A stretch of 64,000 nucleotides of DNA from Pseudomonadota bacterium (lineage in GTDB: Bacteria; Pseudomonadota; Gammaproteobacteria; Pseudomonadales; Halomonadaceae), in assembly GCA_051749645.1 (NCBI GenBank), contig JBNJIT010000004.1, forward strand, positions 89,158 to 153,157. Direction: 5' to 3'. The notes under the pieces are model-generated. The model was not told the DNA's origin. It was given only the letters and a program-made list of their open reading frames with translations, and did not search any database. A program made the translations under genes and the position numbers. Positions 38,317-55,741 of this stretch are shown piece by piece (the stretch's first letter is position 1; every line of letters starts with the position of its first letter).

Positions 38317-38325
38317 GGAGGAGAC

Positions 38326-39249
38326 ATGGCTTATTCCGGCACGCTCCCCACCGCTCGCAGCCAAGCCATGGTTCGCGAGGCCCGACACCTGCTGATGACC
38401 GTGGCGCCCGGCGCATCGTGGATCGTCTTCTTCCTGGTATTGCCCAGCGCCTACCTGATGAGCGTGGCCTTCATGTCCAGCGGCACCTATGGGTTGCCGG
38501 AGATGCCGCTCTCCCTGGAGTCGTTCCGTCAGTTGGCTGGATTCGGCTTCCTCGGCTGGAGTCCGGGCAACCTATACACGCTGCTGCGCTCGCTGTGGCA
38601 GACGCTGGTCTCCACGGCGCTGGTGGTGATCATCGCCTACCCCATCGCCTATTACATCTCGACCTGTCGTGCCCGGTGGCGCCCGATCATGCTGCTTGCC
38701 GTGGTGGTGCCTTCCTGGACCAATCAGGTGATCCGCACGTTCGGCTGGATGAATCTGCTAGCACCGGGAACGCCCCTGTCCGGCGTGGCCGAGAGCCTGG
38801 GACTGATTGCGCCCAACATGGGGCTCTATCCATCGAACTTTGCGGTGACGTTGGGCCTTGTCTACAACTTCCTGCCGTTCATGGTTCTGCCTCTGTATGC
38901 CGCCTTCGAGAAGCTCGACACGGCCCAGGTGGAGGCCGCACAGGATCTCTACGCTTCGCCGCAGCGCGCCTTCTGGCATGCCGTCTTTCCTCAGACGCTG
39001 CCGGGGCTGCTGGCCGGAGTCGTGCTGGTGGCCATTCCCGCCTTCGGCATGTACGTGATTCCCGAGCTGCTCGGCGGCGGCAAGGGGATGATGCTGGGCA
39101 ATCTGGTGGCCAATCAGTTCGCGGGATCCGCCAACTGGCCGCTGGGCGCCGCCGGCGCCATCCTGATGCTGATCGCTACCTTCATCGGTCTGTTCGCCAT
39201 GCGTCGCATCGGCAAACGCCTGGGTGGCGGCGAGGAGGTGGTGATATGA
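38326..39249 (+). CDS. potB: Polyamine ABC transporter permease (PotB-like)
   Basis: VEAAQDL EAA loop, PSWTNQVIRT, NWPLGAA. Confidence 0.85.
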   Translation: MAYSGTLPTARSQAMVREARHLLMTVAPGASWIVFFLVLPSAYLMSVAFMSSGTYGLPEMPLSLESFRQLAGFGFLGWSPGNLYTLLRSLWQTLVSTALVVIIAYPIAYYISTCRARWRPIMLLAVVVPSWTNQVIRTFGWMNLLAPGTPLSGVAESLGLIAPNMGLYPSNFAVTLGLVYNFLPFMVLPLYAAFEKLDTAQVEAAQDLYASPQRAFWHAVFPQTLPGLLAGVVLVAIPAFGMYVIPELLGGGKGMMLGNLVANQFAGSANWPLGAAGAILMLIATFIGLFAMRRIGKRLGGGEEVVI

Positions 39250-40043
39250 ACAAGCGATCCTTCCGGCGTGCACTGACTGGCATCTGGTGGCTGACGCTGC
39301 TGTTCCTCTACTTGCCGCTGGCTGTGGTGGTACTGTTCTCCTTCAATGCAGCCAACAGTGCGGCCAGCTTCACCGGCTTCTCCTTGCGCTGGTACGAGCG
39401 CCTACTGGGCAATGAAGAGATTCTCTCGGCCTTTGCCAACAGCATGATCCTGGCCATCGTCTCCTCGGTGGTGGCGCTGGGCATCGGCTGTCTCATCGGT
39501 TATGGCATGTACCGTCATCGCCATCGCAAGCTCGGCTGGCTGATCGTGCTGATCTACCTGCCCATCGTGTTGCCGGATATCGTCTTCGGCATTTCCGAGA
39601 TGGCCTTTTTCGTGCAGATCCACCGACTGACCGGATTCCTGCAGCCGGGGCTGGGCACCATGATCATTGCCCACGTCACCTTCCAGATCCCCTTCGTGGC
39701 GCTGATCGTCTATTCGCGCTTCGTCGGGCTCGACCCGGCGCTGTTCGAGGCGGCCAAGGATCTCTACGCCTCGCCGGTCAAGCGAGCGGTGCACTTCATG
39801 CTGCCGACCATCAAGCCAGCGTTGATCTCGGCGTCCTTCCTCTCCTTTACCTTGTCGGTGGATGACTTCGTCATCAGCTTCTTCACCGCCGGACCGGAGA
39901 GCGCCACCCTGCCCATCTATATCTGGGGGGCGATCAAGAAGGGGGTCTCTCCCGAGATCAATGCCGTTGCCACCCTGATGCTCGGTGCCGTGGCGATCGC
40001 CGCCATTGCGAGCCTACTGTTCAGCCGTCGCCGGCCGGCCTGA
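39246..40043 (+). CDS. potC: Polyamine ABC transporter permease (PotC-like)
   Basis: ATG at 39246; YLPL...FSFN, SLRWY, EAAKDL, SVDDFVIS and SPEINA motifs. Confidence 0.85.
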   Translation: MNKRSFRRALTGIWWLTLLFLYLPLAVVVLFSFNAANSAASFTGFSLRWYERLLGNEEILSAFANSMILAIVSSVVALGIGCLIGYGMYRHRHRKLGWLIVLIYLPIVLPDIVFGISEMAFFVQIHRLTGFLQPGLGTMIIAHVTFQIPFVALIVYSRFVGLDPALFEAAKDLYASPVKRAVHFMLPTIKPALISASFLSFTLSVDDFVISFFTAGPESATLPIYIWGAIKKGVSPEINAVATLMLGAVAIAAIASLLFSRRRPA

Positions 40044-40083
40044 GCCGGCACTCAATGACCCAAGGGGAAACGAGGAGAGCACT

Positions 40084-41148
40084 ATGACAATGCACAAGAC
40101 GACTCTGGCCCTGTCCCTCGGTGGGCTGCTGCTCGCCGGCAGCGTCCACGCCCAGGAGAACAAGCTTTACCTGTTCAACTGGACCGAATACATGGATCCC
40201 GACATCATCGAGGACTTCGAAGCGCAATACGACGTTGAAGTGGTGCAAAACTACTTCAACTCGCTGCCCGAGATGTTCGCCAAGCTCAATGCCGGCGGGG
40301 TGTCGCAGTACGACATCATCGTACCCTCCAACTACTACGTGCCGCGCCTGATCGAGACCGGCCTGGTGCAGAAACTCGACAAGTCGAAGCTCGACAATCT
40401 CGACAATGTCATGGAGCAGTTCCGCGACCCGAGCTATGACCCGGGTGCCGAATACTCCGCTCCCTACCAGTGGGGGACCACGGCACTGGTCTACAACACC
40501 GAGACCTTTCCCGAAGCGCCCAAGAGCTGGTCGTTGATGTTCGACACCGAGGTCAATCCCGATCATCCCTTCGCCTTGATGGGCGACGGTCAGGTGAGCA
40601 TGGGGGCCGCTTGCGCCTACCTGGGGCACGGCTACGACTGCACCGATCCCGAGGCCTGGAAGGAGGCCGCCCGGCTGATCATCGACACCAAGCGGCGCGA
40701 TACCTTCAGCGGCTTCACCGACGGCACTCCGGCGCTGCAGCAGCTGGCCCGCGGGGTTACTCATGTGGGCATGAGCTACAACGGCGACTATCTGTTCTTC
40801 AAGGACGAGGATCCGGAAACCTTCGCGACACTGGACTTCATGATTCCCGATGAAGGCGCCGAGATGTGGGTGGATGCCATGCTGATTCCGTCCGAGGCGC
40901 CTAATCCCGACATGGCGCACAAGTTCATCGACTTCATCCTCGATGCCGAGGTCGGAGCACGGCTCTCCAACTACAACTACTACGCCAGCCCCAACGCCGC
41001 GGCAGAGCCTCACCTCGATGAAGTGCTCACCCAGCCGCCGGTACAGCCCAGCGACGATGACATGGAGCGGCTGCGTTTCACGCCCAGCCTCCAGGGCGAG
41101 GCACTGCAGACCTTTCAGCAGCTGTGGTCGGAGGTCCAGTCTCGCTGA
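40084..41148 (+). CDS. Polyamine ABC transporter substrate-binding protein (PotD/PotF family)
   Basis: Signal peptide; FNWTEY, YDIIVPSNY, PYQWGTT, WVDAM motifs. Confidence 0.88.
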   Translation: MTMHKTTLALSLGGLLLAGSVHAQENKLYLFNWTEYMDPDIIEDFEAQYDVEVVQNYFNSLPEMFAKLNAGGVSQYDIIVPSNYYVPRLIETGLVQKLDKSKLDNLDNVMEQFRDPSYDPGAEYSAPYQWGTTALVYNTETFPEAPKSWSLMFDTEVNPDHPFALMGDGQVSMGAACAYLGHGYDCTDPEAWKEAARLIIDTKRRDTFSGFTDGTPALQQLARGVTHVGMSYNGDYLFFKDEDPETFATLDFMIPDEGAEMWVDAMLIPSEAPNPDMAHKFIDFILDAEVGARLSNYNYYASPNAAAEPHLDEVLTQPPVQPSDDDMERLRFTPSLQGEALQTFQQLWSEVQSR

Positions 41149-41203
41149 GCGAGCGGCTCCCGGTCTCGGCCGGGAGCCCGCCAATTTCCGCAAGGACAAC
41201 CCC

Positions 41204-42571
41204 ATGAGTGACTCACAGGATCGGCCGGTCCTCAACGACTGGTTTCAGTCGCACGGCATCACCGAAGTCGAATGCCTGGTCAGCGACCTGACCGGGATTC
41301 TCAAGGGCAAGATCATGCCCGCCGGCAAGTACCTCAACGGCGGGCGTCCGCGTCTGCCCGACTCGATCTTCATCCAGACCGTCACCGGTGGCTATCCAGA
41401 CGACGAGGACATCCGCTTCTGGAATCCCGCCGAGCGGGACATGGAGCTGGTGCCCGATCTCAACGCCATCTATCTCGTGCCCTGGGCCGATGACCCGACG
41501 GCACAGATCATTCACGACTGCCACTATCTCACCGGCGAACCGGTGGAGCTGGCGCCGCGTCACGTGCTCAAGCGAGTGCTGGAGTTCTATGCCGCGCGTG
41601 GCTGGAAGCCGGTGGTCGCTCCCGAGGTGGAGTTCTACCTGGTCAAGACCAATACCGACTCCGACTATCCGCTGGAACCGCCCATCGGACGCACCGGGCG
41701 CCAGGAGAGCAGCCGGCAGTCCTTCTCCATCGATGCGGTCAACGAATTCGACCCGCTGTTCGAGGAGATGTACGACTACTGCGAGGCCATGGATCTCGAT
41801 CTCGACACCCTGATCCACGAAGAGGGAGCCGGGCAGATGGAGGTCAACTTTCAGCATGGCGATCCCCTGCAGCTGGCCGACCAGGTGGTGATGTTCAAGC
41901 GCATCCTGCGTGAAACGGCGCTGCGTCACGGCATGTATGCCACCTTCATGGCCAAGCCCATGGCCAATGAGCCGGGCAGTTCCCTGCATATCCATCAGAG
42001 CCTGGTGGACAAGCAGACGGGCAACAACCTCTTCGCCGGCGAGGGCGATCAACCCAGTTCGCTTTTCCATCATTACCTGGGTGGCTTGCAGCGCTATCTG
42101 CCGGCGGCAATGCCGCTGCTGGCTCCCAACGTCAACTCCTACCGGCGCCTGATGCGTGGCGAAACCAGCGGGTCGGCGCCGATCAACGTCGAATGGGGGC
42201 TCGACAACCGCACCGTCGGCCTGCGTGTGCCCGTATCGCCACCGGCTGCCACGCGCATCGAGAACCGCCTGGCCGGGGCCGACGCCAACCCTTACCTGGC
42301 TATTGCCGCCTCCCTGGCGTGCGGCTATCTGGGCATGCTGGGCCAGCTCGAGCCGCGCCCGCCAATGCTGGGGTCGGCCTGGTCCGGCGGCAACAAGCTG
42401 CCCGACGACGTCGGCCCCGCGCTGGACGACCTGCGCGACTGCAAGGCGCTTGCCGACGTGCTGGGCGAGCGATTCGTCAACAGCTACCTGGCAGTCAAGC
42501 GTGCCGAGCATAGGGCGTACTTCCAGGTGATCAGTTCCTGGGAGCGAGAGCACCTGCTGCTGCGGGTCTGA
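41204..42571 (+). CDS. Glutamine-synthetase-like gamma-glutamylpolyamine ligase (PuuA/PauA-like)
   Basis: SDLTGILKGK, PEVEFY, HEEGAGQMEVN, TFMAKP, NRTVGLRVP and GADANPYL motifs; start at 41204 with RBS AAGGA. Confidence 0.88.
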   Translation: MSDSQDRPVLNDWFQSHGITEVECLVSDLTGILKGKIMPAGKYLNGGRPRLPDSIFIQTVTGGYPDDEDIRFWNPAERDMELVPDLNAIYLVPWADDPTAQIIHDCHYLTGEPVELAPRHVLKRVLEFYAARGWKPVVAPEVEFYLVKTNTDSDYPLEPPIGRTGRQESSRQSFSIDAVNEFDPLFEEMYDYCEAMDLDLDTLIHEEGAGQMEVNFQHGDPLQLADQVVMFKRILRETALRHGMYATFMAKPMANEPGSSLHIHQSLVDKQTGNNLFAGEGDQPSSLFHHYLGGLQRYLPAAMPLLAPNVNSYRRLMRGETSGSAPINVEWGLDNRTVGLRVPVSPPAATRIENRLAGADANPYLAIAASLACGYLGMLGQLEPRPPMLGSAWSGGNKLPDDVGPALDDLRDCKALADVLGERFVNSYLAVKRAEHRAYFQVISSWEREHLLLRV

Positions 42572-42657
42572 GCGGTGCTGGACATGGTCCAGGTGTCCGG
42601 AGACGGTTAGACAGTGCCTTCTTGTAGACGAATACAGACGCAATCGAGGAAGTCGAT

Positions 42658-43950
42658 ATGACGGCAACGGCGGCCACCGATCACGTGGCGTCCTGGTATG
42701 CGGCCACGGCCAACCCCGCACCGGAGCGGCCTGCACTGACAGATGACATCGACTGCGACGTTTGCGTGGTCGGGGCGGGCTTTACCGGGATTTCGGCGGC
42801 GCTGCATCTTGCCGAGCAGGGCCTCTCGGTAGTGGTGCTTGAAGCGGCCCGCGTGGGGTTTGGCGCGTCCGGTCGCAATGGCGGGCAGATCGTCAATAGC
42901 TACAGTCGCGATATGGACGTGATCGAGGTGAAGTACGGTGCCGAGACCGCTCGTGCCTTGGGCGACATGGCTTTCGAAGGCAACCGCATCATTCGCGATC
43001 GCGTCGCTCGTTATGGAATCGATTGCGATCTGCGTGACGGCAATCTCTTCGCTGCCTGCAACGCCAAGCAGCTGCACGGACTGCGCGAGCACAAGGCACT
43101 GTGGGAACGCTACGGCTACACCGAGCTGGAGCTGCTGGAAGGCGAGGCCGTCAAGCGGGAAGTCGACTCGGAGCGCTACAGCGGCGCCCTGGTCGATCAT
43201 GGTGGCGGTCACCTGCATCCGCTCAACCTGGTGCTGGGCCAGGCCGAGGCATTGGAATCGCTGGGCGGTCGCATTTACGAACGGTCACCCGTGACCGGCA
43301 TCGACCATGGCGAACCGGTGGTCGTGCATACGCCATCAGGTCGGATCAAGGCCGAGCGGGTGGTGATGGCCGGCAATGCCTATCTCAAGGGCGTGCTGCC
43401 CGAGATCGAGGGCCAATCGATGCCCTGCGGCACTCAGATCGTCACCACCGAACCGCTCGGCGAGGCCCGCGCCCGAGCTCTGATCCCCAATGGTCTGGCG
43501 GTGGAGGACTGCAACTACCTGCTGGACTATTATCGTCTGACCCGTGACAACCGCCTGCTCTACGGTGGCGGGGTCAACTACGGTGGCGACGACCCCAGCG
43601 ACATCGAAAGCGTCATTCGGCCCAAGATGCTCAAGACCTTTCCGTCACTGGCCGACGTCAAGGTCGAGTACGCCTGGAGTGGCACCTTCCTGATGACGCT
43701 CAACCGCCTGCCGCAGTTCGGCGTGATCAACGGCAACGTCTATTATGCCCAGGGCTATTCCGGCCACGGCGTGACCTGCACGCACCTCGCCGGCAAGCTG
43801 ATAGCCGAGGTGATCGAGGGGCGCAGCGAGCGCTTCGATGCCTTCGCCGGCCTGCCTCACCTGCCGTTCCCTGGCGGGCGCCTGCTGCGCGTTCCTCTGT
43901 CGGCGCTGGGGGCCTGGTACTACCAGGCCCGCGATCGCCTCGGCATCTAG
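42658..43950 (+). CDS. puuB: Gamma-glutamylputrescine oxidase-like FAD oxidoreductase
   Basis: DHVASWYAATA, GAGFTG, GASGRNGGQ, MPCGTQIVTTEPL and QGYSGHG motifs. Confidence 0.85.
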   Translation: MTATAATDHVASWYAATANPAPERPALTDDIDCDVCVVGAGFTGISAALHLAEQGLSVVVLEAARVGFGASGRNGGQIVNSYSRDMDVIEVKYGAETARALGDMAFEGNRIIRDRVARYGIDCDLRDGNLFAACNAKQLHGLREHKALWERYGYTELELLEGEAVKREVDSERYSGALVDHGGGHLHPLNLVLGQAEALESLGGRIYERSPVTGIDHGEPVVVHTPSGRIKAERVVMAGNAYLKGVLPEIEGQSMPCGTQIVTTEPLGEARARALIPNGLAVEDCNYLLDYYRLTRDNRLLYGGGVNYGGDDPSDIESVIRPKMLKTFPSLADVKVEYAWSGTFLMTLNRLPQFGVINGNVYYAQGYSGHGVTCTHLAGKLIAEVIEGRSERFDAFAGLPHLPFPGGRLLRVPLSALGAWYYQARDRLGI

Positions 43951-44104: not shown

Positions 44105-45838
44105 TCAGAACAAGCCGACGATCTCGCCGTCGTCGTCGATGTCGATGCGTGAGGCAGCGGGTTCGGCGCTGAGACCCGGCATAGTGCGAATTTCGCCGCA
44201 TAGCGCGTAGACGAAGCCGGCGCCGGCGGAGAGGCGCACCTCGCGCACCGGCAGCAACCAGCCGGTGGGCGCTCCCAGCAGTGTCGGATCGGCGGAGAGC
44301 GACAGGTGACTCTTGGCGATGCACACCGGAAGGTGGCCGTGGCCCTGGGCCTGGAACGCCTCGAGTTGCTGACGGGCCTGGGGCGCGAGCTCGATGCCAT
44401 CGGCACCGTAGATCCGCGTGGCGATGCGTTCGATCTTGTCGGCGAGCGGCAGCGCATCCGGGTAGAGGAATCGGAAGTCGCTACCGGCATCGGCTGCCTC
44501 GGCGACCGCCTCTGCCAGCTCCACGGCTCCGGCGCCGCCATCTCGCACGTGGGTGGAGACTGCCGCGCGTACGCCCGCTGCCGCGGCGATGTCGTGGATG
44601 ATGGCGTGTTCGCTGGGGTAGTCCGTCGGGAAGGCATTGATGGCCACCACCGGGGTGATGCCGTGCGCGCGGATATTGTCGATCTGCTTGACCAGGTTGC
44701 TGGCGCCGGCCTGCACGTCCTGCGGGCTTTCGTCCTGCATCGCGGCCGGCAGGGGGTGGCCGGGGCGCACCGTGTGCCGGCCCGAGTGGTACTTGAGCGC
44801 GCGTACCGTGACGACCAGAACGGCAGTGTCGGGTGTGAGCCCTGAGCTGCGGCATTTGATGTTGAAGAAGCGTTCCGCCCCCATGTCCGCACCGAAGCCT
44901 GCCTCGGTGACCAGGTAGTCGCTGCCGTGGATGCCGAAGCGGTCGGCGACGATCGACGAGTTGCCGTGGGCGATGTTGCCGAAGGGGCCGGCGTGGATCA
45001 GCGCTGGGGCATGCTCTAGCGTTTGCAGCAGGTTGGGCTTGATCGCCTCCTTGAGCAGGACGGTCATGGCGCCGGCCGCACCGATGTCGTCGGCGGTGAC
45101 CGGCTCGCCGTCGCGGGTCTCGCCCACCACCATGCGGCCGAGCCGCTGGCGCAGGTCCGCCAGGGAGTCGGCCAGGGCGAGCACTGCCATGACCTCGGAG
45201 GCGGCGGTGATCTCGAAGCCGCTCTGGCGTGTCACGCCATCGCCGCGCCCGCCAAGGCCGGTGACGATGTGGCGCAAGGCGCGGTCGTTGAGATCCAGCA
45301 CGCGCGACCAGCACACCGAGCGAGGGTCGAGATCGACCCCGCGGCGCTGGTGGAGATGGTTGTCGATCATTGCGGCGAGCAGGTTGTGCGCCGCCGTGAC
45401 GGCATGAATGTCGCCGGTCAGATGTAGATTGATGCGCTCCATGGGCACTACCTGACTGAGCCCGCCGCCGGCGGCACCGCCCTTGAGCCCCAGGGTGGGG
45501 CCAAGGGAGGGTTGGCGTATGGCCACCGTGGCCCCATGGCCCAGCTGCTGCAGACCCTGGACGAGACCGATGGCGGTAGTGGTCTTGCCCTCGCCCAGGG
45601 GCGTGGGGGTGATCGCCGAAACCACCACGTAGCGGCCACGTGAGCGGCACTCGAGATCGCTCAGTGCGCCCAGGTCGAGCTTGGCCACACCGCGACCGTA
45701 GGGCTCCACGGCATCGCCGGGCACGCCCAGCCGATGGGCGATCTCCTCAATGGGCCACAGCCGTGCCTGTCGCGCGATGCTGAGATTGTCCTGCATGGGA
45801 GGTGTTGCTGTGGACAGTGCCTGGGGTTCGGGGGCCAT
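44105..45838 (-). CDS. fhs: Formate-tetrahydrofolate ligase
   Basis: TPTPLGEGKTT, KGGAAGGG, HAGPFGNIAHG, EAGFGADMG and TMPGL motifs; start 45838 has RBS AGGAG. Confidence 0.95.
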   Translation of the reverse strand: MAPEPQALSTATPPMQDNLSIARQARLWPIEEIAHRLGVPGDAVEPYGRGVAKLDLGALSDLECRSRGRYVVVSAITPTPLGEGKTTTAIGLVQGLQQLGHGATVAIRQPSLGPTLGLKGGAAGGGLSQVVPMERINLHLTGDIHAVTAAHNLLAAMIDNHLHQRRGVDLDPRSVCWSRVLDLNDRALRHIVTGLGGRGDGVTRQSGFEITAASEVMAVLALADSLADLRQRLGRMVVGETRDGEPVTADDIGAAGAMTVLLKEAIKPNLLQTLEHAPALIHAGPFGNIAHGNSSIVADRFGIHGSDYLVTEAGFGADMGAERFFNIKCRSSGLTPDTAVLVVTVRALKYHSGRHTVRPGHPLPAAMQDESPQDVQAGASNLVKQIDNIRAHGITPVVAINAFPTDYPSEHAIIHDIAAAAGVRAAVSTHVRDGGAGAVELAEAVAEAADAGSDFRFLYPDALPLADKIERIATRIYGADGIELAPQARQQLEAFQAQGHGHLPVCIAKSHLSLSADPTLLGAPTGWLLPVREVRLSAGAGFVYALCGEIRTMPGLSAEPAASRIDIDDDGEIVGLF

Positions 45839-45910
45839 GAGGGGTCTCCTGATGCCGGTTGCGGTAGGCGTGCGCCTCGTTTCAGTATTTTCGCCATGAG
45901 CCATCGCCGT

Positions 45911-45947
45911 TTGTGCGCAGGCGTCAACCGGCTTGGTCGCAGCGACA
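45911..45947 (-). promoter_or_regulatory. Tandem GlxA/ArgR-type operator upstream of fhs
   Basis: Minus strand TGTCGC-N8-AG-N5-TGACGC-N8-AA (21-bp period); -10-like AATACT starts at 45889. Confidence 0.6.
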
Positions 45948-46052
45948 CCGGTGCGATGTCTCTGCAGGTGGGGCGGTTGACGTGGCTATGCAACTTGGTG
46001 CCATATTCATTGTCGTTTAACCAGAACGGCGAGATGGCTCCGGGAGGCGAGC

Positions 46053-47096
46053 ATGGAACCCCACGAGTTGCCGGGCGATGGCCAATACGACATCGGGTTC
46101 CTGTTGATCCCGGGGTTCTCCCAGTTGGCGTTCTCCTCGGCGCTGGAGCCGCTGCGGATGGCCAATCACCTCACCGAGCGGCGGCTCTATCGCTGGCATC
46201 TGCTGAGCCGTGACGGTAAACCGGTCACGGCCAGCAGCGACTTGGCGACCGGCGTCGACGCTGCCCTGTCTTCGGCTCCAAGCCTCGATCTGGTGGTGGT
46301 GTGTGCCGGCGTTGAGGTGCAAAGCCATTGCGATCGCGACACTCTGCAGTGGCTACGGCGCCAGGCCGGTCGGCACCTGCCGCTGGGAGCCGTGTGTACC
46401 GGAGGCTACGTGCTGGCCCAGGCGGGGCTGCTCGACGGCTATCGCTGCACCCTGCACTGGGAGCACATATCTAGCCTCCATGAAGCCCTGCAGTTTCCCC
46501 GTGTGACCTTCTGCTCGCAGCTCTTCGTGCTCGACCGGGATCGCTACACCTGTTCGGGCGGCATTGCGCCGCTGGACATGATGCTCACCTTGATTGCCCG
46601 TCAGCAGGGGCTGGGGCTGGCCGAGGCCATCGCCGAGGAGTTCATCCACGAGCGCATTCGTGGCGTGGGCGATCGCCAGCGCAATCCGCTGCGCGTGCGC
46701 CTGGGTCATAGCCACCCCAAGCTGGAGGAGGTGGCCACGCTGATGGAAGCCAATCTTCAGGAGCCGCTCACCCTCGACGAACTGGCCAGCCACGCCGATC
46801 TCTCGCGGCGCCAGCTGGAGCGGCTGTTTCAGCGCTACGTCGACTGTCCGCCTCTGAAGTACTACATGGACCTGCGCTTGATGCGGGCTCGCCAGCTGCT
46901 GCGCCAGACCCACATGCCGATCACCGACGTGGCCATGGCGTGCGGCTTCGTTTCTCCACCGCACTTCACCAAGAGCTATCGAGACCACTTCGGTCATTCG
47001 CCAAGCCGCGAACGGGAGCGTAGACGCGATCGCGAAGCGGCCGCCCAGGCCGCCAGTCCCCTGTTATCGCACTCTCCGGCCGATCATACCGAGTGA
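46053..47096 (+). CDS. GlxA-family AraC regulator (DJ-1/PfpI + HTH; GbdR/SouR-like)
   Basis: SALEPLRMAN, GAVCTG, TLHWEH, TCSGG and LSRRQLERLF motifs. Confidence 0.92.
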   Translation: MEPHELPGDGQYDIGFLLIPGFSQLAFSSALEPLRMANHLTERRLYRWHLLSRDGKPVTASSDLATGVDAALSSAPSLDLVVVCAGVEVQSHCDRDTLQWLRRQAGRHLPLGAVCTGGYVLAQAGLLDGYRCTLHWEHISSLHEALQFPRVTFCSQLFVLDRDRYTCSGGIAPLDMMLTLIARQQGLGLAEAIAEEFIHERIRGVGDRQRNPLRVRLGHSHPKLEEVATLMEANLQEPLTLDELASHADLSRRQLERLFQRYVDCPPLKYYMDLRLMRARQLLRQTHMPITDVAMACGFVSPPHFTKSYRDHFGHSPSRERERRRDREAAAQAASPLLSHSPADHTE

Positions 47097-47099
47097 GGC

Positions 47100-49667
47100 T
47101 CAGCTGCGGGGGCGCAGGTTCTCCGGGTCGTAGAGCGGGCGATACCCCACGGCGGCCACCCGCAGCGGGTAGTGCTCGCCGAAGTACTCCATGATCAGGG
47201 CGTTGCCTTCCCTGGCATCGCCCTCCGGCAGGTAACCCAGAGCGATGACTTTCTCCACCGAGGGGCCGTAGGCGATGCTGGTCACGTAGGAACGGCGTCT
47301 CACGCTGTCGATCAGTACGTCGCCGCTGGCCGGGTCGAGGATAGGGGCATGGCCGACCGGGAAACGTGGCGTTCCCGCGGCGTCGCGATTCTCCTCCATG
47401 ACCAGGGTGCACAGATAGGCGGGCTGCCGGTCGCGTTCGCGCTGAGCGAGATAGGCCGCCTTGCCGTGGAAGTCCGCCGCCTTGACCTTGGGGCGGGCCA
47501 GTCCCGCCTCGTAGAGATTGTATTCGGTGAGCAGGTCGACGTTCTGCAGCCGCAGGCTCTTCTCCAGACGCCGGCTGTTGGCGTAGGTCTCGACGCCCAC
47601 CGGAGTCACGCCCTGCTCATGGAGAAGATCCCAGAGCGCGAGCCCGTAGCTGAAGGGGACGTAGAGCTCCCAGCCCTGTTCGCCCACGTAGGAGATGCGG
47701 AAGGCCCACACCGGCAGGCCGCGAACGCGAATCTCGCGGGCCGTGGCGAAGGGGAAGCGCTCGTCGTCGAGTTCCTCGGGGGCGTCGGCGACGGCCTGCA
47801 GCGTGCGTCTGGCGTTGGGACCCCACAGCCCCAGAGTGGCCAGGCTGTCAGTGCGGTCCTCGACGTGCAGACCCTCGAGCCCGCGGGCCTGGGCCATGCG
47901 CGTCATCCACACGAGGTCACGATGGCCGGTGTCGCCGCCGCAGATCACCCGGTAGCGGTCGTTGCCCAGGCGGACGATGGTGAGATCGCCGTGCACGCCG
48001 CCCCATTCATCCAGGAAATGGGTGTAGACGCCCTTGCCGGTCGGGGTGTCGCCGCCGACCTTGGCGACCGAGAGGTATTCCAGCAGGGCCTCGGCGTCCG
48101 GGCCGGAGACGTCGTAGATGGCGAAGTGGGAGAGATTGATCATGCCCACGTCGTCGGAAAGCGCCAGGTGCTCGGCGTTGGAGACGCGCCAGAAGTGGCG
48201 GCCGTCCCACTCGTCGAGTCGCTCGGGTATGCGCTCGGCGTAGCGCTCCAGCAGTGGCTCGTTGGCCGCGTAGCCGTGGGCGCGTTCCCAGCCGGCGGCT
48301 TCCATGAAGTGGCCGCCGAGCTCCCGCTCGCGGGGCCAGAAGGGGCTGCGCCGGAGGTTGCGGCCACTCTCGAAGGGTTCGCGAGGGTGCACCGGTGGGT
48401 CGTAGATCTTCCTGGCGATCTCCTGGCAGCGCCCGTACACGTAGTCGGGTGTCTTCTGTACCGGATAGAAACGGGCGATGTCGATGCCGTGGGGGTCGAG
48501 CTCCGGCTTGCCCCGGGTGAGCCAGTCGGCGAGTACCTTGCCCATCCCCGGGCCGTCCTTGACCCACACCGCTTCGCAGAACCACAGCCCGCGGGTCTCG
48601 GGGGACTCGCCGACCAGTGAGCCGCCGTCGTTGGTGACGGAGAGCAGACCGTTGAAGGAGTGCTTTTCGTCCCAGCCCAATTCGCCGAGCGCGGGGGTCA
48701 GTTCGATGGCGCGCTCGAAGGCGTCCATGACCTGATCCAGCTCGAGATCGCGCATGGAGGGCGACAGCCGTGCCTGGTGCCGCTCGAGGATGTCCTGGGG
48801 AGGGACGAGTCTGGGCGAGTGGGCCTCGTAGTAGCCCCACTCGAGCTGACCGCCTTCGGTGCTGGATGGGTCGCCGGTATCGCGCAGGTAGGCGGAGTTG
48901 CCCTGGTCGCGCAATAGCGGGTAGCCGATCTCCAGGCCAGTGCCGGCAAAGGTGTCGAAGGGGCCGAAGAAGAGCAATGGATGCTCGACGGGCATCAATG
49001 GCAGGGCGGCGCCGCCCATGGCGGCGGGAATCGGTCCCCAGATGCCGGAGGTGACGATGACCACCGACGTGGCGATATAGCCCTTGGCAGTCTCCACGCC
49101 ATGAATGCGACCGTTGCGTACGTCGATGCTCAGCGCTGGGGTATCGGCGAAGGCCTTCAGGGCTCCCGATGCCACCGCCCGCTCCACCAGTTCGCCGGCG
49201 ACCTGCTGCGAGCGCGGCACGACCAGGCCGGCGTCGGGGTCCCACATCGCTCCCTGGATCAGGTTGCGGTCCAGCAGTGGAAAGCGTTCGGCGGCCTCGG
49301 CGGCACTGATCATGCGCACGTTGGTGCCGAAGGCTTTGCCCGAAGCGACCTTGCGCTTGAGCTCAGCCAGGCGGGCATCGTCGCCGACGCGCGCCACCTC
49401 CAGGCCGCCGATTCGCTGGTAGCGGCCCATCCGCTCATAGAAGCGCTGGCTGTAGGTGGTGGTGTAGCACGACATCTTGTCGTGGGAGGTCATGTAGCAG
49501 AAGTCGGAGGCGTGGGACGTCGAGCCGATATCCGAGGGGATCGACGACTTGTCGAGGCCGACCAGGTCGTCCCAGCCCTGCTCGATCAGGTGGTGGGCCA
49601 CCGAAGCGCCGACGATGCCGCCCTGGCCGATGATGACCGCGCGTGCCTGCTGGGGTAATGCCGCCAT
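47100..49667 (-). CDS. Dimethylglycine oxidase/dehydrogenase-like flavoprotein (FAD domain + GcvT folate domain)
   Basis: GQGGIVG dinucleotide fold, GSTSHA flavinylation-type His, VEHP, RLEKS and SIAYGPSV motifs; start MAALPQQ with RBS AGGAGG. Confidence 0.8.
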   Translation of the reverse strand: MAALPQQARAVIIGQGGIVGASVAHHLIEQGWDDLVGLDKSSIPSDIGSTSHASDFCYMTSHDKMSCYTTTYSQRFYERMGRYQRIGGLEVARVGDDARLAELKRKVASGKAFGTNVRMISAAEAAERFPLLDRNLIQGAMWDPDAGLVVPRSQQVAGELVERAVASGALKAFADTPALSIDVRNGRIHGVETAKGYIATSVVIVTSGIWGPIPAAMGGAALPLMPVEHPLLFFGPFDTFAGTGLEIGYPLLRDQGNSAYLRDTGDPSSTEGGQLEWGYYEAHSPRLVPPQDILERHQARLSPSMRDLELDQVMDAFERAIELTPALGELGWDEKHSFNGLLSVTNDGGSLVGESPETRGLWFCEAVWVKDGPGMGKVLADWLTRGKPELDPHGIDIARFYPVQKTPDYVYGRCQEIARKIYDPPVHPREPFESGRNLRRSPFWPRERELGGHFMEAAGWERAHGYAANEPLLERYAERIPERLDEWDGRHFWRVSNAEHLALSDDVGMINLSHFAIYDVSGPDAEALLEYLSVAKVGGDTPTGKGVYTHFLDEWGGVHGDLTIVRLGNDRYRVICGGDTGHRDLVWMTRMAQARGLEGLHVEDRTDSLATLGLWGPNARRTLQAVADAPEELDDERFPFATAREIRVRGLPVWAFRISYVGEQGWELYVPFSYGLALWDLLHEQGVTPVGVETYANSRRLEKSLRLQNVDLLTEYNLYEAGLARPKVKAADFHGKAAYLAQRERDRQPAYLCTLVMEENRDAAGTPRFPVGHAPILDPASGDVLIDSVRRRSYVTSIAYGPSVEKVIALGYLPEGDAREGNALIMEYFGEHYPLRVAAVGYRPLYDPENLRPRS

Positions 49668-49746
49668 GCTCCTCCTCCTGGTGTGCCGCCTGGGTTGGCC
49701 GTCGCTGTCACTATTCAAGCTAATGCACCCAGCCTGCGATTGCTGT

Positions 49747-49779
49747 CCAGCGACGACTTGCATTTGCATCGTGACGACA
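49747..49779 (-). promoter_or_regulatory. Tandem operator facing the flavoprotein gene
   Basis: Minus strand TGTCGT-N8-AA-N5-AGTCGTCGCTGG; -10-like TAGCTT starts at 49722. Confidence 0.65.
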
Positions 49780-49805
49780 GCGTGAGGCAAAGCGTCGGCA
49801 TGCAC

Positions 49806-49838
49806 TGTCGCTGGCGCCAAAGTCGCTGTCGTCGCTGG
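49806..49838 (+). promoter_or_regulatory. Tandem operator facing the DmdA-like gene
   Basis: TGTCGC-N8-AA-N5-TGTCGTCGCTGG; -10-like TAGCTT at 49864. Confidence 0.65.
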
Positions 49839-50004
49839 TGCCATGGCAGTGGCCAGTGAGCATTAGCTTTACATCAGGGTAGCGCGTTTGCGCGCCTCGG
49901 AGGTCGTCGCAGTCGATCAGTGTCACGTCCGACAGCCTCCTGGCATTCATTCGATTTCGCCTCGCCGCCGGTGCGTTCCGTGGGGCGGGCAAGGAGCGGC
50001 AATC

Positions 50005-51201
50005 ATGTCCCAGGCCATCGAGAGCATTCAGCACACCCAGGCGGCGCCGGAGATCCTGCTCTATCCGCGTATTCGCAAGTCGCCGTTCTTCTATGCCTCG
50101 CGGCGGCATGGAGTGCGCAAGTACAGCGTCTACAACCACCACTACCACCCGCGCCTCTACACCGATCCGGTGGATGAGTACTGGGCGCTGGTGGAGGGCG
50201 TCACCCTGTGGGACGTGGGAGTGGAGCGCCAGATCGAGATCAGCGGCCCGGATGCCTTCGCCTTCACCCAGCGCTTGGTGCCCCGCGACATGCGCCAGTG
50301 TCAGGTGGGGCAGTGCAAATACGTCTTCGTCACCGCCCCCGACGGCGGCATCATCAACGACCCGGTGCTGTTGCGCATCGAGGAGAATCGTTTCTGGCTG
50401 TCGCTGGCGGACAGCGACGTGCTGCTGTGGTGCCAGGGGTTGGCCTACCATTCCGACCTCGACGTCACCCTCCGGGAGGTCGATGTGGCCCCGGTCCAGG
50501 TTCAGGGGCCCAAGGCCAAGGCGGTGATGGTCGACCTGTTCGGTGAGGCCGTGCTGTCGATGCCCTATTACCATCTGATGGAAGCCGAACTCGACGGCAT
50601 GTCGGTGGTGATCTCGCGCACCGGTTACTCCGGCGAAATCGGCTACGAGATCTATCTGCGCGAGGCGAGCCGCCACGGGGAAGCGCTGTGGCAGCGGGTC
50701 TTCGAGGCGGGGAGGCCCCATGACATGCAGGTGATCGGCCCCTGCCACATCCGACGCATCGAGGGGGGGATCCTCGCTTTCGGCTGCGACATCTGGTACG
50801 ACACCAACCCCTTCGAAGTGGGCATGGGTTATGACTGGATGGTCGACCTGCGTGGCGACGATGACTTCATCGGTCGCGCTGCGCTAGAGCGTATCAAGGC
50901 CGAAGGGGTTTCGCGCAAATTGGTGGGAGTGGAAATCGACGGTCCCAGCGTCGGCTACTTCACCGACGGTGCCATGATCGACGTCTTCCCGGTCCTCGAT
51001 AGTGCCGGCACGCGTATCGGCCAGGTGACCTCGGCCACCCGTTCACCGCGGCAGGAGCGCAATATCGGCTATGCCATGGTGCCGATCGAGCATAGCGAGT
51101 TGGGCACGCCGCTGCGCATCGAGGCCAATACTGGCCTGCAGGAAGCGCGGGTGGTTTCCAAGCCGTTCCACGACCCCAGCAAGGCGATTCCCAAGGGGTG
51201 A
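50005..51201 (+). CDS. GcvT-family THF-dependent methyltransferase, DmdA-like
   Basis: YSVYNH, LWDVGVERQIEISGPD, INDPVLLRIEENRFWLSLADSD, VQGP, SRTGYSGEIGYEIY and NPFE motifs; RBS AAGGAG. Confidence 0.8.
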   Translation: MSQAIESIQHTQAAPEILLYPRIRKSPFFYASRRHGVRKYSVYNHHYHPRLYTDPVDEYWALVEGVTLWDVGVERQIEISGPDAFAFTQRLVPRDMRQCQVGQCKYVFVTAPDGGIINDPVLLRIEENRFWLSLADSDVLLWCQGLAYHSDLDVTLREVDVAPVQVQGPKAKAVMVDLFGEAVLSMPYYHLMEAELDGMSVVISRTGYSGEIGYEIYLREASRHGEALWQRVFEAGRPHDMQVIGPCHIRRIEGGILAFGCDIWYDTNPFEVGMGYDWMVDLRGDDDFIGRAALERIKAEGVSRKLVGVEIDGPSVGYFTDGAMIDVFPVLDSAGTRIGQVTSATRSPRQERNIGYAMVPIEHSELGTPLRIEANTGLQEARVVSKPFHDPSKAIPKG

Positions 51202-51212
51202 GCCCCGGTACG

Positions 51213-51233
51213 ACCCCACCGGTGGTGGGGTCA
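51213..51233. terminator. Hairpin between convergent genes
   Basis: GACCCCACC-GGT-GGTGGGGTC. Confidence 0.6.
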
Positions 51234-52607
51234 TACGTGGCGCAGATACCAGTCGTACTCGAGCTTGTTCACCACCTGCATGGCCGCATCGCGCTCGGCG
51301 CGACGGTTGGCCAGGAAGACGGCGAGGAAGTCGTGTCCCAGTGCCGCATTGAGCACGGCACTCCCTTCCAGTAGGTCGAGAGCTCGTTGCCAGCTGTTGG
51401 TGAGGCTGGGGGATACCTGGGCGTAGGCGTTGCCGGTGATGGGGGGCGGCGGTTCGAGCCGATGATCCAGGCCATGCTCGATGCCGGCCAGCAGGGTCGC
51501 CACCAGGAGGTAGGGGTTGGCGTCGGCGCCGGCTACGCGATGTTCGATGCGTCGCGCTCCGTTGGGCCCGGCTGGAACACGCAGTGCGACCGAGCGGTTG
51601 TCGTATCCCCAGGTGGGTGTCATGGGTACGTAGAGGCCCGGCTGGAAACGGCGGTAGGAGTTGAGATTGGGCGCGCAGATGGCCATGCTCGCCGGCATCG
51701 TGGCCAACAGCCCGGCTACGGCATGGTGCAGGCGGGGCGTGCCGAGTGGCTCGCCATCCGGGTCGGCGAAGACGTTGTCGCCGGCCGGGTCGAGCAGGCT
51801 GATGTGCACATGAGTGCCGTTGCCGGCTTCCTGCCCATAGGGCTTGGCCATGAAGGTCGCCTCGAAGCCGTGCCGAAGAGCGACACCCTTGATCAGCCGC
51901 TTGAGCAGCACGGCGCTGTCGCAGGCGGTCAGGGCGTTTGCGCAGTGCACCAGGTTGATCTCGAACTGGCCGGGAGCGCACTCCTTGAGCGCCGTGTCCA
52001 GCGGCAGCCCCTGGATGTCGGCAGCGTGCTGGATCGCCTCGAGAAAGTCGGCGTACTCATCGAGCTCGCTGATCGAGTAGAGCTGGCTCTGAGTGGCGCG
52101 TTCGCCGTTGCCGGGTGACAGCGGCGGCTGGACCATGCCCAAGGCATCCCGGGCGCGATCCACCAGGTAGAATTCCATTTCCACGGCGACCACCGGCGTC
52201 AAGCCGGCGTGCTGAAAACGGGCCAACACGCGAGACAATACCTGGCGAGGGTCGGCAAAGAAGGGGCTGCCGTCGAGCTCGCTCATGGTCATCAACAGCT
52301 GGGCCTGGCGCCCCTCCCGCAGCCAGGGGCTGGGGGCGAGGGTCCCCGGTATGGGGTGACAGACTCGGTCGCCGTCACCGCTCGACAGGCCCAGGCCGGT
52401 TTCCTCGATGGTGTTGCCATTGATGTCCAGCGCGAACACCGACGCCGGCAAGTGGATGCCCTGCTCATACGCCTTGGCGAGGTTGCTGCCTGGCAGCCGC
52501 TTGCCGCGCATCACACCGTTGAGGTCGCTGATCAGCAGGTCGACGCTGTCGATGTCCGGATGCTGCTCGAGAAAGGCATGGGCCTCGGCGACTGGGCGAG
52601 ACGACAT
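51231..52607 (-). CDS. puuA: Gamma-glutamylpolyamine ligase (PuuA-like)
   Basis: SDLNGVMRGKR, AVEMEFYL, ECAPGQFEIN, TFMAKPY, NRSVALRVP and GADANPYL motifs. Confidence 0.85.
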   Translation of the reverse strand: MSSRPVAEAHAFLEQHPDIDSVDLLISDLNGVMRGKRLPGSNLAKAYEQGIHLPASVFALDINGNTIEETGLGLSSGDGDRVCHPIPGTLAPSPWLREGRQAQLLMTMSELDGSPFFADPRQVLSRVLARFQHAGLTPVVAVEMEFYLVDRARDALGMVQPPLSPGNGERATQSQLYSISELDEYADFLEAIQHAADIQGLPLDTALKECAPGQFEINLVHCANALTACDSAVLLKRLIKGVALRHGFEATFMAKPYGQEAGNGTHVHISLLDPAGDNVFADPDGEPLGTPRLHHAVAGLLATMPASMAICAPNLNSYRRFQPGLYVPMTPTWGYDNRSVALRVPAGPNGARRIEHRVAGADANPYLLVATLLAGIEHGLDHRLEPPPPITGNAYAQVSPSLTNSWQRALDLLEGSAVLNAALGHDFLAVFLANRRAERDAAMQVVNKLEYDWYLRHV

Positions 52608-52793
52608 GGTGTCACCTGTGCGTGGTTGGCTTTGATGGCTATCTTTCAGTTGCTGTCAGGTGTTGTCAAATCCTTTACGACAGAAAGCTGTTCGTTGCGC
52701 CTGACTGGATCGCTATAGAGCTCTTCGGTGCGCATTGTTTGGGGATTCTTGCAGTTTTTCGTGACGAGTTGGCAATCGGCATTTGGGGCTGTA

Positions 52794-52812
52794 TGTTGAG
52801 CAAAGTATAACA
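52794..52812. promoter_or_regulatory. Candidate PuuR/PauR operator
   Basis: TGTT-N11-AACA in the AT-rich divergent puuA/spuC region; related TGTTGTC...CGACA at 52661-52682. Confidence 0.3.
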
Positions 52813-52853
52813 TTGCTCCCATGAGTGGCTCGCGCCGAGGAGACTCCACCATC

Positions 52854-54242
52854 ATGAGCCAGGAATTGAAAGCGCTCGACCGCGCCCATCATCTTCACTC
52901 CTTCACCGACTTCAAGGCCCTGGGAGAAGAGGGCAGTCGTATCATCACCCATGCCGAGGGTGTCTACATCCACGACAGTGAAGGCCATCGGATTCTCGAC
53001 GGCATGGCCGGGCTGTGGTGCGTCAACCTGGGCTATGGCCGCGAAGAGCTCGTCGCTGCGGCCAGCGTGCAGATGCGCGAACTGCCTTACTACAACAATT
53101 TCTTCAAGACGACGCATCCGCCGGCCGTGAAGCTCGCCGAGACGCTGTGTCGCCTGGCGCCTCCCTACGTCAATCATGTCTTCTTCACCGGCTCCGGCTC
53201 CGAGGCCAACGATACAGTGCTGCGCATGGTGCGACGTTTCTGGGCGCTGCGGGGCAAGCCACGCAAGCAGTGGGTGATCGCTCGCGAGAACGCCTACCAC
53301 GGCTCCACCGTTGCCGGCATGAGTCTGGGCGGCATGGCGCCGATGCACGCCCAGGGCGGTCCGCTGGTGCCGGGTATCGCCCACGTCCGCCAGCCCTACT
53401 GGTTTGACGAAGGGCGAGACCGGGACCCCGAGGCCTTCGGCCGCGAGTGCGCTGCCGCCATCGAAGCGAAGATCCAGGAGCTGGGGGAAGATAACGTCGC
53501 TGCCTTCATTGCCGAGCCCGTGCAGGGTGCTGGCGGGGCCATCATTCCGCCGGAAAGCTACTGGCCGGCGGTGAAGGCGGTGCTGGCGAAATACGACATC
53601 CTGCTGGTGGTCGACGAGGTGATCTGCGGTTTCGGACGTCTCGGTGAATGGTTCGGTAGCCAGCACTACGGTCTCGAGCCCGATCTGATGCCGATTGCCA
53701 AGGGACTCTCGTCCGGCTATCTGCCCATCGGTGGCGTGCTGGTGGGGGATCGGGTGGCCGATACGCTGATCGAAGCGGGTGGCGAGTTTTTCCACGGCTT
53801 CACCTACTCCGGCCATCCGGTCTGTGCCGCCGTGGCATTGAAGAATCTCGAACTGATGGAAGCCGAGGACGTGGTGGAACGCGTTCGCGACGAGATCGGT
53901 CCCTACATCGCCAAGCGCTGGGGCGAACTGGCCGATCACCCGCTGGTGGGTGAGGCGCGTTCGCTGGGGCTGATCGGCGCCCTGGAGCTGATCGATCCGG
54001 CCTGCGGCGAGCGTTTTCCCAAGGCGTGGGGAGCGGGCAACCTGTGCCGGGACATCAGCTTTGAGGCCGGCCTGGTGATGCGTTCGGTGGGTGATACGAT
54101 GATCATTTCGCCGCCCCTGGTCATCACCCGCGAGCAGGTCGACGAGCTGGTCGGCCTGGCCCGCCAGGCGCTGGACGAAACCGCTGAACGTCTGGCCCAT
54201 CGCCGGGCTCGCCAACCCCATACAGAGGAGAAATCCGCATGA
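52854..54242 (+). CDS. spuC: Class III aminotransferase, putrescine-pyruvate type
   Basis: LDGMAGLWC, SGSEAND, YHGST, DEVICGFGR and IAKGLSSGY (PLP Lys) motifs; start MSQELK with RBS GAGGAG. Confidence 0.82.
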   Translation: MSQELKALDRAHHLHSFTDFKALGEEGSRIITHAEGVYIHDSEGHRILDGMAGLWCVNLGYGREELVAAASVQMRELPYYNNFFKTTHPPAVKLAETLCRLAPPYVNHVFFTGSGSEANDTVLRMVRRFWALRGKPRKQWVIARENAYHGSTVAGMSLGGMAPMHAQGGPLVPGIAHVRQPYWFDEGRDRDPEAFGRECAAAIEAKIQELGEDNVAAFIAEPVQGAGGAIIPPESYWPAVKAVLAKYDILLVVDEVICGFGRLGEWFGSQHYGLEPDLMPIAKGLSSGYLPIGGVLVGDRVADTLIEAGGEFFHGFTYSGHPVCAAVALKNLELMEAEDVVERVRDEIGPYIAKRWGELADHPLVGEARSLGLIGALELIDPACGERFPKAWGAGNLCRDISFEAGLVMRSVGDTMIISPPLVITREQVDELVGLARQALDETAERLAHRRARQPHTEEKSA

Positions 54243-55741
54243 GCGCCCAGCATCGTCCCGAGAGCCGTGCCGACTGGCAGGCCCTAGCCGACGCCTTGAC
54301 CTTCGAGTCTCGCGCCTTCATCGACGACGACTTTGCGGCAGCGGCCAGCGGCGAGACCTTCGAATCGCGCAACCCGGCAACCGGCGAGCTCCTGGCCGAG
54401 GTGGCGAGCTGCGATGCCCCGGATGCCGAGCGCGCGGTGGCTGCCGGACGCGCCGCCTTCGCCGCTGGCGGCTGGTCGCGCCTGGCTCCCGGTAAGCGCA
54501 AGAAGATCCTGCTGCGGCTTGCCGACCTGATGGAAGACCACAAGGATGAGCTGGCACTGCTCGACACCCTCGACATGGGCAAGCCGATCGGCAGTTCCCT
54601 CGGCGACATGGCCGGTGCCATCGCTTGCTTGCGCTACAACGCCGAGGCCATCGACAAGGTCTTCGGCGAGGTGGCGCCCACCGGCGAGGAAAGCCTGGCG
54701 CTGGTACTGCGTGAGCCGCTCGGTGTGGTGGCTTCCATCGTGCCGTGGAATTTCCCGCTGATGATGACCGCGTGGAAGATCGCGCCGGCACTGGCCGCCG
54801 GCAACAGCGTCATCCTCAAGCCCTCGGAGAAGTCGCCCCTCTCGGCGTTGCGGCTCGCCCAGCTGGCCCAGCAGGCGGGCCTGCCGCGCGGTGTCTTCCA
54901 GGTACTGCCGGGCTTTGGCCATACCGTGGGCAAGGCATTGGCGCTCTCCATGGAGGTCGACTGCCTCTCCTTCACGGGCTCCACCGCCACCGGCAAGCAG
55001 CTGATGCAATATGCCGGGCAGTCCAACCTCAAGCGGGTCTACCTGGAGTGCGGCGGCAAGAGTCCCAACCTGATCTTTGCCGACTGCAAAAACCTCGACC
55101 GGGTGGCCAAGCATGCCGCGGCGGCCATCTTCCACAATCAGGGAGAGGTGTGCATCGCGGGCTCACGACTGTTGGTCGAGAACAGCATCCGCGAAGCGTT
55201 CGTCGACAAGGTGCTGGCCGCTGCCGAGACCATGCAGCCGGGCGACCCTCTCGATCCCGACAGTTTCATGGGAGCCATCGTCGACGAGGCTCAGCACCGC
55301 CGTATCCTCGATTACATTCGCCAGGGGGTGGAAGCGGGAGCCCGGTTGCGTACCGGTGGCCAGGCGCTGTCCGGGCGGGGGCTGTTCATACCGCCAACGG
55401 TGTTCGACGGCGTGACGCCGACGATGGCCATCGGCCGCGAGGAAGTCTTCGGCCCGGTGCTCTCGGTGTTCGGTTTCGACAGCGAGGAAGAGGCCATCGA
55501 ACTGGCCAACGACAGCGTCTACGGCCTTGCGGCCGGCCTGTGGAGCCAGGACATCGACCGCATCATGCGCGTGACGCGCCGACTCCATTCGGGCCAGGTG
55601 TTCGTCAACAACTGGGCCGGCGGTGATCAGACCGTGCCCTTCGGTGGCGTCAAGCAGTCGGGCAACGGCCGCGACAAGTCGATGCACTCACTGCAGGAGT
55701 ACTCGGAGCTCAAGACGGTGTGGATGGCGCTGTCGACCTGA
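54239..55741 (+). CDS. puuC: Aldehyde dehydrogenase (PuuC/PauC-like)
   Basis: VPWNFP, FTGST, LECGGKSP, NQGEVC and EEVFGPV motifs; ATGA overlap with spuC. Confidence 0.85.
   Translation: MSAQHRPESRADWQALADALTFESRAFIDDDFAAAASGETFESRNPATGELLAEVASCDAPDAERAVAAGRAAFAAGGWSRLAPGKRKKILLRLADLMEDHKDELALLDTLDMGKPIGSSLGDMAGAIACLRYNAEAIDKVFGEVAPTGEESLALVLREPLGVVASIVPWNFPLMMTAWKIAPALAAGNSVILKPSEKSPLSALRLAQLAQQAGLPRGVFQVLPGFGHTVGKALALSMEVDCLSFTGSTATGKQLMQYAGQSNLKRVYLECGGKSPNLIFADCKNLDRVAKHAAAAIFHNQGEVCIAGSRLLVENSIREAFVDKVLAAAETMQPGDPLDPDSFMGAIVDEAQHRRILDYIRQGVEAGARLRTGGQALSGRGLFIPPTVFDGVTPTMAIGREEVFGPVLSVFGFDSEEEAIELANDSVYGLAAGLWSQDIDRIMRVTRRLHSGQVFVNNWAGGDQTVPFGGVKQSGNGRDKSMHSLQEYSELKTVWMALST

Follow-up and report, generated by a model that had tools for sequence, protein, structure and literature searches.

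Which regulator controls a small group of genes for one-carbon transfer and demethylation, and whether their promoters answer to it together, is the question raised by a 64,000-nucleotide stretch of a Halomonadaceae genome (a Pseudomonadota bacterium, GenBank assembly GCA_051749645.1, contig JBNJIT010000004.1, positions 89,158 to 153,157 of the forward strand), referred to here in its entirety as the window. The group comprises fhs, encoding a formate-tetrahydrofolate ligase, a gene for a flavoprotein of the dimethylglycine/sarcosine dehydrogenase type and a gene for a DmdA-like folate-dependent methyltransferase, and the gene of a regulator lies between fhs and the flavoprotein gene (Table 1). 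An earlier note on this DNA proposed that the three promoters share one architecture, that this architecture matches the tandem box of Pseudomonas ArgR, and that the adjacent regulator co-activates all three genes. We find at each promoter a tandem site of two 21-bp units followed by a -10-like hexamer, conserved in several genera together with the regulator and the gene order, and on sequence evidence we put at roughly 0.7 the probability that in this genome the three promoters are all activated mainly by the adjacent regulator (46053-47096).

This reading provides a paralogue of the regulator GbdR in halophilic Gammaproteobacteria with a binding motif that can be put to use and a predicted regulon of three promoters, and carries the site logic of Pseudomonas and Burkholderia over to a further order. 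The genes for the DmdA-like methyltransferase, the dimethylglycine-dehydrogenase-like flavoprotein and fhs would then form a single co-regulated unit, and the substrate becomes a testable question, namely by which methylated amine the promoters are induced.

A tandem site at three promoters

Read directly from the sequence, all six half-sites stand where the earlier note had placed them, beginning at 45947 and 45926 on the minus strand for fhs, at 49779 and 49758 on the minus strand for the flavoprotein gene, and at 49806 and 49827 on the plus strand for the DmdA-like gene, and the spacing between the two half-sites is exactly 21 bp at every promoter. The distances from the start of the proximal half-site to the -10-like hexamer are also as described (37, 36 and 37 nt respectively), and the distal half-site is indeed followed by N8-AA at the flavoprotein and DmdA-like promoters and by N8-AG at fhs. 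The proximal half-site of fhs is likewise followed by N8-AA (45911-45912), a feature absent from that description and invariant in eight genomes. The resulting unit consensus is TGTCGC-N5-CC-A-A(A/G)-N5, occurring as two 21-bp units head-to-tail, of which the second copy is weaker. A further proposal, that the two divergent promoters have GTCGTCGCTGG and GCATTAGCTT in common, holds for the window, but these words are not shared in most of the orthologues compared.

Table 1. Predicted regulator sites, -10-like hexamers and genes of the module (window positions).
Feature	Position	Strand	Basis or remark
fhs regulator site (predicted), TGTCGC-TGCGACCA-AG-CCGGT / TGACGC-CTGCGCAC-AA-ACGGC	45906..45947	-	direct reading; two 21-bp units
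fhs promoter -10-like hexamer, AATACT	45884..45889	-	37 nt after proximal half-site start
Flavoprotein regulator site (predicted), TGTCGT-CACGATGC-AA-ATGCA / AGTCGT-CGCTGGAC-AG-CAATC	49738..49779	-	direct reading; weakest of the three
Flavoprotein promoter -10-like hexamer, TAGCTT	49717..49722	-	36 nt after proximal half-site start
DmdA-like regulator site (predicted), TGTCGC-TGGCGCCA-AA-GTCGC / TGTCGT-CGCTGGTG-CC-ATGGC	49806..49847	+	direct reading
DmdA-like promoter -10-like hexamer, TAGCTT	49864..49869	+	37 nt after proximal half-site start
fhs, formate-tetrahydrofolate ligase	44105..45838	-	NCBIfam NF010030, 787 bits; Pfam FTHFS
Regulator gene	46053..47096	+	DJ-1/PfpI (GATase-1-like) domain and AraC double helix-turn-helix
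Flavoprotein, dimethylglycine/sarcosine dehydrogenase type	47100..49667	-	Pfam DAO, FAO_M, GCV_T and GCV_T_C
DmdA-like folate-dependent methyltransferase, GcvT family	50005..51201	+	Pfam GCV_T, GCV_T_C; NCBIfam DmdA model, 334.6 bits

Conservation of the sites

The pattern TGTCGY-N15-WGWCGY has three matches in the 64-kb window against an expectation of 0.31, and all three are these promoter sites; since the pattern was derived from the sites themselves, this test is circular and weak evidence alone, and we relied on other genomes instead. Orthologues of the regulator are present in seven genomes of the same genus at 77-88% identity, and gene order is kept in the six of these with enough flanking sequence, the locus of the seventh (G007) being split across contigs. 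When the intergenic regions of seven to eight same-genus genomes are aligned, conservation is nearly confined to islands at the half-sites, at the A at +14 and at the -10 hexamers: 24 of the 26 invariant columns between fhs and the regulator gene, and 37 of 50 between the flavoprotein and DmdA-like genes, fall inside the sites and the -10 hexamers. The fhs hexamer reads nATACT(G) without exception in eight genomes and in 19 further ones, the TAGCTT of the flavoprotein promoter is aligned to TATGCT or TATCCT in its orthologues, and the DmdA-like hexamer is conserved as TAG(C/T)(T/G)T within an alignment that is free of gaps there across seven genomes.

By its regulator, which is 99% identical to that of H. 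faecis and 94% identical to that of B. gudaonensis, the organism is a Halomonas/Billgrantia species. The comparison was extended to another 44 orthologous loci, each full-length and spanning 13 kb, which come from Halomonas, Billgrantia, Franzmannia, Modicisalibacter and others. A relaxed form of the pattern is found on the fhs side of 38 of these loci, on the flavoprotein side of 41 and on the DmdA-like side of 30, with no match outside the three expected positions in any of the 44. Placed in one register, 57 sites from 19 genomes have an invariant distal GTCG, an invariant proximal G.CG and a nearly invariant A at +14. Halomonas, Billgrantia, Franzmannia and Modicisalibacter keep the regulator, the gene order and the three sites together, and conservation of the motif upstream of orthologues, on which the earlier note had staked its proposal beforehand, is borne out by footprints both in the seven to eight same-genus genomes and in the 44 further loci.

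Parts of the layout occur beyond these genera, in Arhodomonas, in Spiribacter and in an unclassified gammaproteobacterial metagenome-assembled genome (MAG). The fhs promoter of Arhodomonas has TGTCGC-N15-TGACGC-N8-AA with AATAAT at 37 nt, and its DmdA-like promoter retains AGTCGC with TAGCTT at 37 nt; the fhs promoter of Spiribacter has TGTCGT-N15-TGCCGC-N8-AA with CATACT, again at 37 nt. The MAG encodes a regulator 66% identical to that of the window, beside which the DmdA-like gene has been relocated, still preceded by TGTCGC-N8-AA-N5-AGTCGC and by TAGTCT at 37 nt.

Genome-wide distribution of the motif

A position weight matrix scan of the whole genome, as suggested in the earlier note, was made with a matrix of 47 orthologous sites from 16 other genomes, the closest relatives being excluded. 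Across 3.86 Mb the fhs site ranks first (37.5 bits), the DmdA-like site second (34.1 bits) and the flavoprotein site fourth (21.7 bits), compared with maxima of 13-19 bits when shuffled genomes are scanned with the same matrix. The scan had been meant to disclose more members of the regulon; no other match among the top twelve is intergenic, all of them lying within open reading frames, and therefore no further regulon member was found. In this genome the predicted regulon consists of the three promoters, possibly with the addition of the regulator's own gene through the intergenic region that it shares with fhs.

GC content is 65%, GTCG-type words are common in such G+C-rich sequence, the core motif alone amounts to about 20 bits, and scans with one promoter left out are weak, all of which would suit an explanation of the resemblance as a functionless by-product of base composition. 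To this we attach next to no probability, given that the footprints are confined to these positions, that the sites are the sole pattern matches in the 44 loci, and that their ranks of 1, 2 and 4 stand against the shuffled maxima of 13-19 bits; the conservation data have already refuted it. On the comparative evidence, the resemblance among the three promoters is beyond chance, and the view that they form an ordinary small regulon of an already known layout is well supported as a prediction.

The regulator and its relatives

The regulator has the two domains by which the GATR class is defined, an N-terminal DJ-1/PfpI (GATase-1-like) domain (PF01965, residues 43-182) and a C-terminal AraC-type double helix-turn-helix (HTH; PF12833 and PF00165, residues 244-323), and among solved structures it matches 3gra in its N-terminal domain and 3oio in its HTH domain. 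It scores 446.3 bits against the NCBIfam equivalog model for GbdR (NF052371), for which the curated cut-off is 480, and a separate GbdR orthologue, to which it is 54% identical, is encoded on contig C10 of the same genome; from these two observations we conclude that the window regulator is a paralogue of GbdR and not GbdR itself. About 17 matches to the window regulator are encoded in the genome. The HTH regions of the window regulator and the C10 GbdR orthologue are identical at 61 of 101 positions, and of the recognition helices SRRQLERLF is identical and S(P/T)PHF(T/S)K(S/C)YR nearly so.

The C10 orthologue belongs to a region outside the window (C10:87666-111866) that also includes a dipeptidase gene, dgcAB, etfBA, formaldehyde and formate dehydrogenase genes, gbcA (apparently with gbcB alongside), a SouR-like regulator gene, glyA and soxB. 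With gene names assigned by eye from translations and sequence, this region is a canonical glycine betaine catabolic cluster, and taken with the module in the window it indicates that the genome carries both this route and the folate-dependent module. The window motif is absent from the intergenic regions of the C10 cluster, both on inspection of the sequence and in the genome matrix scan, and a looser TGACGT-N15-CGTCGT stands upstream of TATGCT before the dipeptidase and dgcA genes (spacing counted by eye).

In Pseudomonas the box of ArgR, an AraC/XylS-type regulator, follows the consensus TGTCGCN6GNAA, of which two tandem copies stand 5 bp apart, the second being less conserved (PMC10963909). 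The likeness perceived in the earlier note holds for most of the box: the sites studied here have TGTCGC, A at +14 and A or G at +15, their units are separated by 5 bp and their second copy is the weaker one, and the P. aeruginosa box likewise has AA at +14/+15 and a period of 21 bp (PMC10963909). The two differ at +12, where the ArgR consensus has G and the present sites mostly C (of 47 sites, 35 have C, 10 have G and 2 have A), and also in context, the window regulator lying outside any arginine-transport operon and its targets being genes of one-carbon metabolism and demethylation.

GbdR and CdhR, not ArgR, are the closest characterised relatives of the window regulator. The CdhR site consists of GGTCGC half-sites with a 15-bp spacer and has been called very similar to the sites of GbdR, SouR and ArgR, and the central CG of the half-site is required for binding by both GbdR and CdhR (PMC5806209). 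Direct repeats of a hexamer with a 15-bp spacer, the spacing characteristic of GATR-type sites (PMC5806209), are found at all three promoters, and the central CG is preserved in the distal GTCG and proximal G.CG that do not vary across the 57 sites. As in the P. aeruginosa CdhR and GbdR systems, with which the present sites thus agree in repeat, spacer and central CG (PMC5806209), the regulator gene is divergent from a target, paralogues would share sites and the genes controlled would concern the catabolism of methylated amines (PMC5806209). The half-site itself is TGTCGC here, as opposed to GGTCGC for CdhR and GCCGC for GbdR at caiX-cdhR (PMC5806209). GbdR differs further in that the window regulator falls below the equivalog cut-off and the true GbdR orthologue lies elsewhere in the genome.

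Promoter architecture and proposed mechanism

A promoter scan of 45700-50100 found no sigma-70 promoter with a -35 element, and from the end of the proximal unit to the -10 hexamer there are 16-17 nt at each of the three promoters, whose transcription starts are predicted. With starts so predicted, the proximal repeat would cover the -35 position, at which no -35 element was found, and this arrangement would fit activator-dependent promoters of class II. We propose that fhs, the flavoprotein gene and the DmdA-like gene are each driven by a -10-only promoter that depends on a GATR-class regulator. If the -10 hexamer is numbered -12 to -7, the proximal unit would extend from about -49 to -29 and fill the -35 position; activators that touch RNA polymerase directly are usually placed in this way, and an activator bound here could do the same.

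MarA, Rob and AraC offer an analogy, under which one double HTH domain would read one unit, one helix lying on TGTCGC and the other, about a helical turn downstream, on the CCA-AA patch, and a dimer of the regulator, joined by its N-terminal domains, would cover both units. The regulator's C-terminal domain matches the double HTH domains of MarA, Rob and SoxS (PDB 1bl0, 1d5y); those proteins, however, bind single sites as monomers, whereas by the same analogy the tandem units here would imply a dimer. No complex of a GATR protein with DNA is among the solved structures that match the regulator by sequence.

Characterised GATR relatives bind DNA with or without ligand and activate on binding a methylated amine; the window regulator, too, is probably constantly bound to DNA and switched on by a methylated amine, for which glycine betaine and dimethylglycine would be the obvious candidates. 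We infer binding and activation by the adjacent regulator, the transcription starts and the inducer from the features described above.

Occupation of the -35 region could also serve the opposite purpose, the adjacent regulator binding as a repressor that blocks this region until an inducer releases it. ArgR represses some promoters, and the position of the proximal unit over -35 would suit such a role. CdhR without ligand represses its own basal expression (PMC5806209). We nevertheless consider repression very unlikely, because the three promoters have no usable -35 hexamer, as is typical of activator-dependent promoters, and because characterised GATRs activate their catabolic targets.

The adjacent regulator and its paralogues

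Several observations weigh against assigning all three promoters to the adjacent regulator. The same-genus genomes G018, G019, G021 and G023 contain no orthologue of either the regulator or the DmdA-like gene, and yet all four keep an orthologue of the flavoprotein gene (67-84% identity), and site and -10 hexamer are retained at its promoter. The site in these regulator-less genomes (G023, L038 6842-6905; the others, L039-L041) reads TGTCGC-N15-(C/T)GTCG(C/T) with the -10 hexamer at 36 nt, from which it follows that a paralogue can probably also use it. With some 17 matches to the regulator in the genome and near-identical recognition helices in the C10 GbdR orthologue, the adjacent regulator may not be the only protein to bind. 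The shared motif is also compact: the full 44-column matrix built with one promoter class left out finds that class poorly, since the spacer columns are promoter-specific and such matrices generalise poorly, and the common ground of the three classes comes to roughly 16-20 core positions. Lastly, the CdhR site is located over 100 bp upstream of its promoter (class I), in contrast to the site here, which is directly next to the -35 position; overlap with -35 is therefore not universal in this family of regulators.

Some of these points would be explained if the sites were genuine GATR sites bound mainly by a paralogue, either the C10 GbdR orthologue or another of the approximately 17 GATR-like genes, with the adjacent regulator acting only as a co-regulator or competitor in the manner of GbdR and CdhR in the caiX-cdhR region. 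Besides the flavoprotein site conserved in the four genomes that lack the adjacent regulator, the 61 of 101 identical positions in the HTH region and the near-identity of the recognition helices speak for this explanation, as do the documented overlapping sites of GbdR and CdhR (PMC5806209). We hold it to be unlikely all the same, because the regulator, the gene order and the three sites co-occur across several genera, in over 40 genomes, because the intergenic regions of the C10 cluster are without the motif, and because position +15 in G018, G019, G021 and G023 is T, not A or G, which suggests a different specificity. The adjacent regulator is accordingly retained as the principal activator, at the probability given at the outset, and the regulator-less genomes that keep the site provide a natural case in which to study how paralogous regulators share or partition their sites.

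The flavoprotein gene of G023 lies between a formate dehydrogenase cluster and genes for a polyamine-type oxidase and a transporter; no fhs stands beside it in this neighbourhood (L038), the only regulator-less one examined.

Gene units and a possible demethylation route

Because every neighbour is convergent, fhs, the flavoprotein gene and the DmdA-like gene are three single-gene units, fhs being convergent with the oxidase gene upstream. The real gene starts lie at 45838 (fhs), 49667 (flavoprotein) and 50005 (DmdA-like), and the predicted leaders are therefore about 40, about 40 and about 130-135 nt long. The product of the last gene falls below the cut-off of 410 bits in the NCBIfam DmdA model, with 334.6 bits.

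A bolder reading, which we hold to be rather unlikely, is that the module constitutes a self-contained, oxygenase-free, folate-dependent demethylation route for glycine betaine/dimethylglycine or another methylated amine, parallel to the canonical GbcAB/DgcAB/Sox cluster of this genome and equipped with its own GbdR paralogue. If this were true, the near-identical recognition helices would lead two paralogues to share or compete for TGTCGC-type sites, and the helical phase of the divergent sites (15, 25-26, 36 and 46 bp; see below) would mean that the bound dimers interact.

In the MAG described above (L098 8408-9286) the DmdA-like gene is followed by a methylenetetrahydrofolate-reductase-like gene (Pfam MTHFR), a neighbour that fits a 5-methyl-tetrahydrofolate product, whatever the substrate. 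The equivalent position in L089 is taken by an open reading frame of 309 amino acids.

Flanking genes, leader and additional half-sites

On either side of the module (window 37198-43950 and 51231-55741) lie PotABCD-type transporter genes, two glutamine-synthetase-like genes and genes for a PuuB-like oxidase, a class III aminotransferase and a PuuC-like aldehyde dehydrogenase, polyamine-type genes which together look like a gamma-glutamylation pathway for amines. The regulator motif is absent from these flanks in both the window pattern scan and the genome matrix scan, and they are therefore probably outside the three-promoter unit.

The leader of the DmdA-like gene (window 49870-50004) is about 50-60 nt long in six orthologues and carries an insertion of about 80 nt in the window; a search of this long leader for a riboswitch or other RNA gave no Rfam match at E <= 1.

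Additional half-sites occur in three places. On the minus strand of the window a possible third half-site, TGCCGA (49795-49800), stands exactly 21 bp upstream of the distal half-site of the flavoprotein promoter, and Arhodomonas has a full additional tandem site upstream of its flavoprotein site (L089 9734-9794). The MAG has a complete inverted partner site, TGTCGC-N8-AA-N5-CGTCGT, on the minus strand (L098 7044-7070), which points into the regulator gene at its 3' end, serves no gene and is perhaps a relic or else an auxiliary site upstream.

The spacer between the divergent distal half-sites is 26 bp in the window (49780-49805) and 15 bp in its 99%-identical relative. Across 40 orthologous loci, some of which represent one genome taken twice, it measures 15 bp in 23, 25-26 bp in three, 36 bp in two and 46 bp in seven, with outliers of 2, 13-14 and 69 bp, and these steps of approximately one helical turn suggest either that phasing has been retained or that extra repeat units have been inserted.

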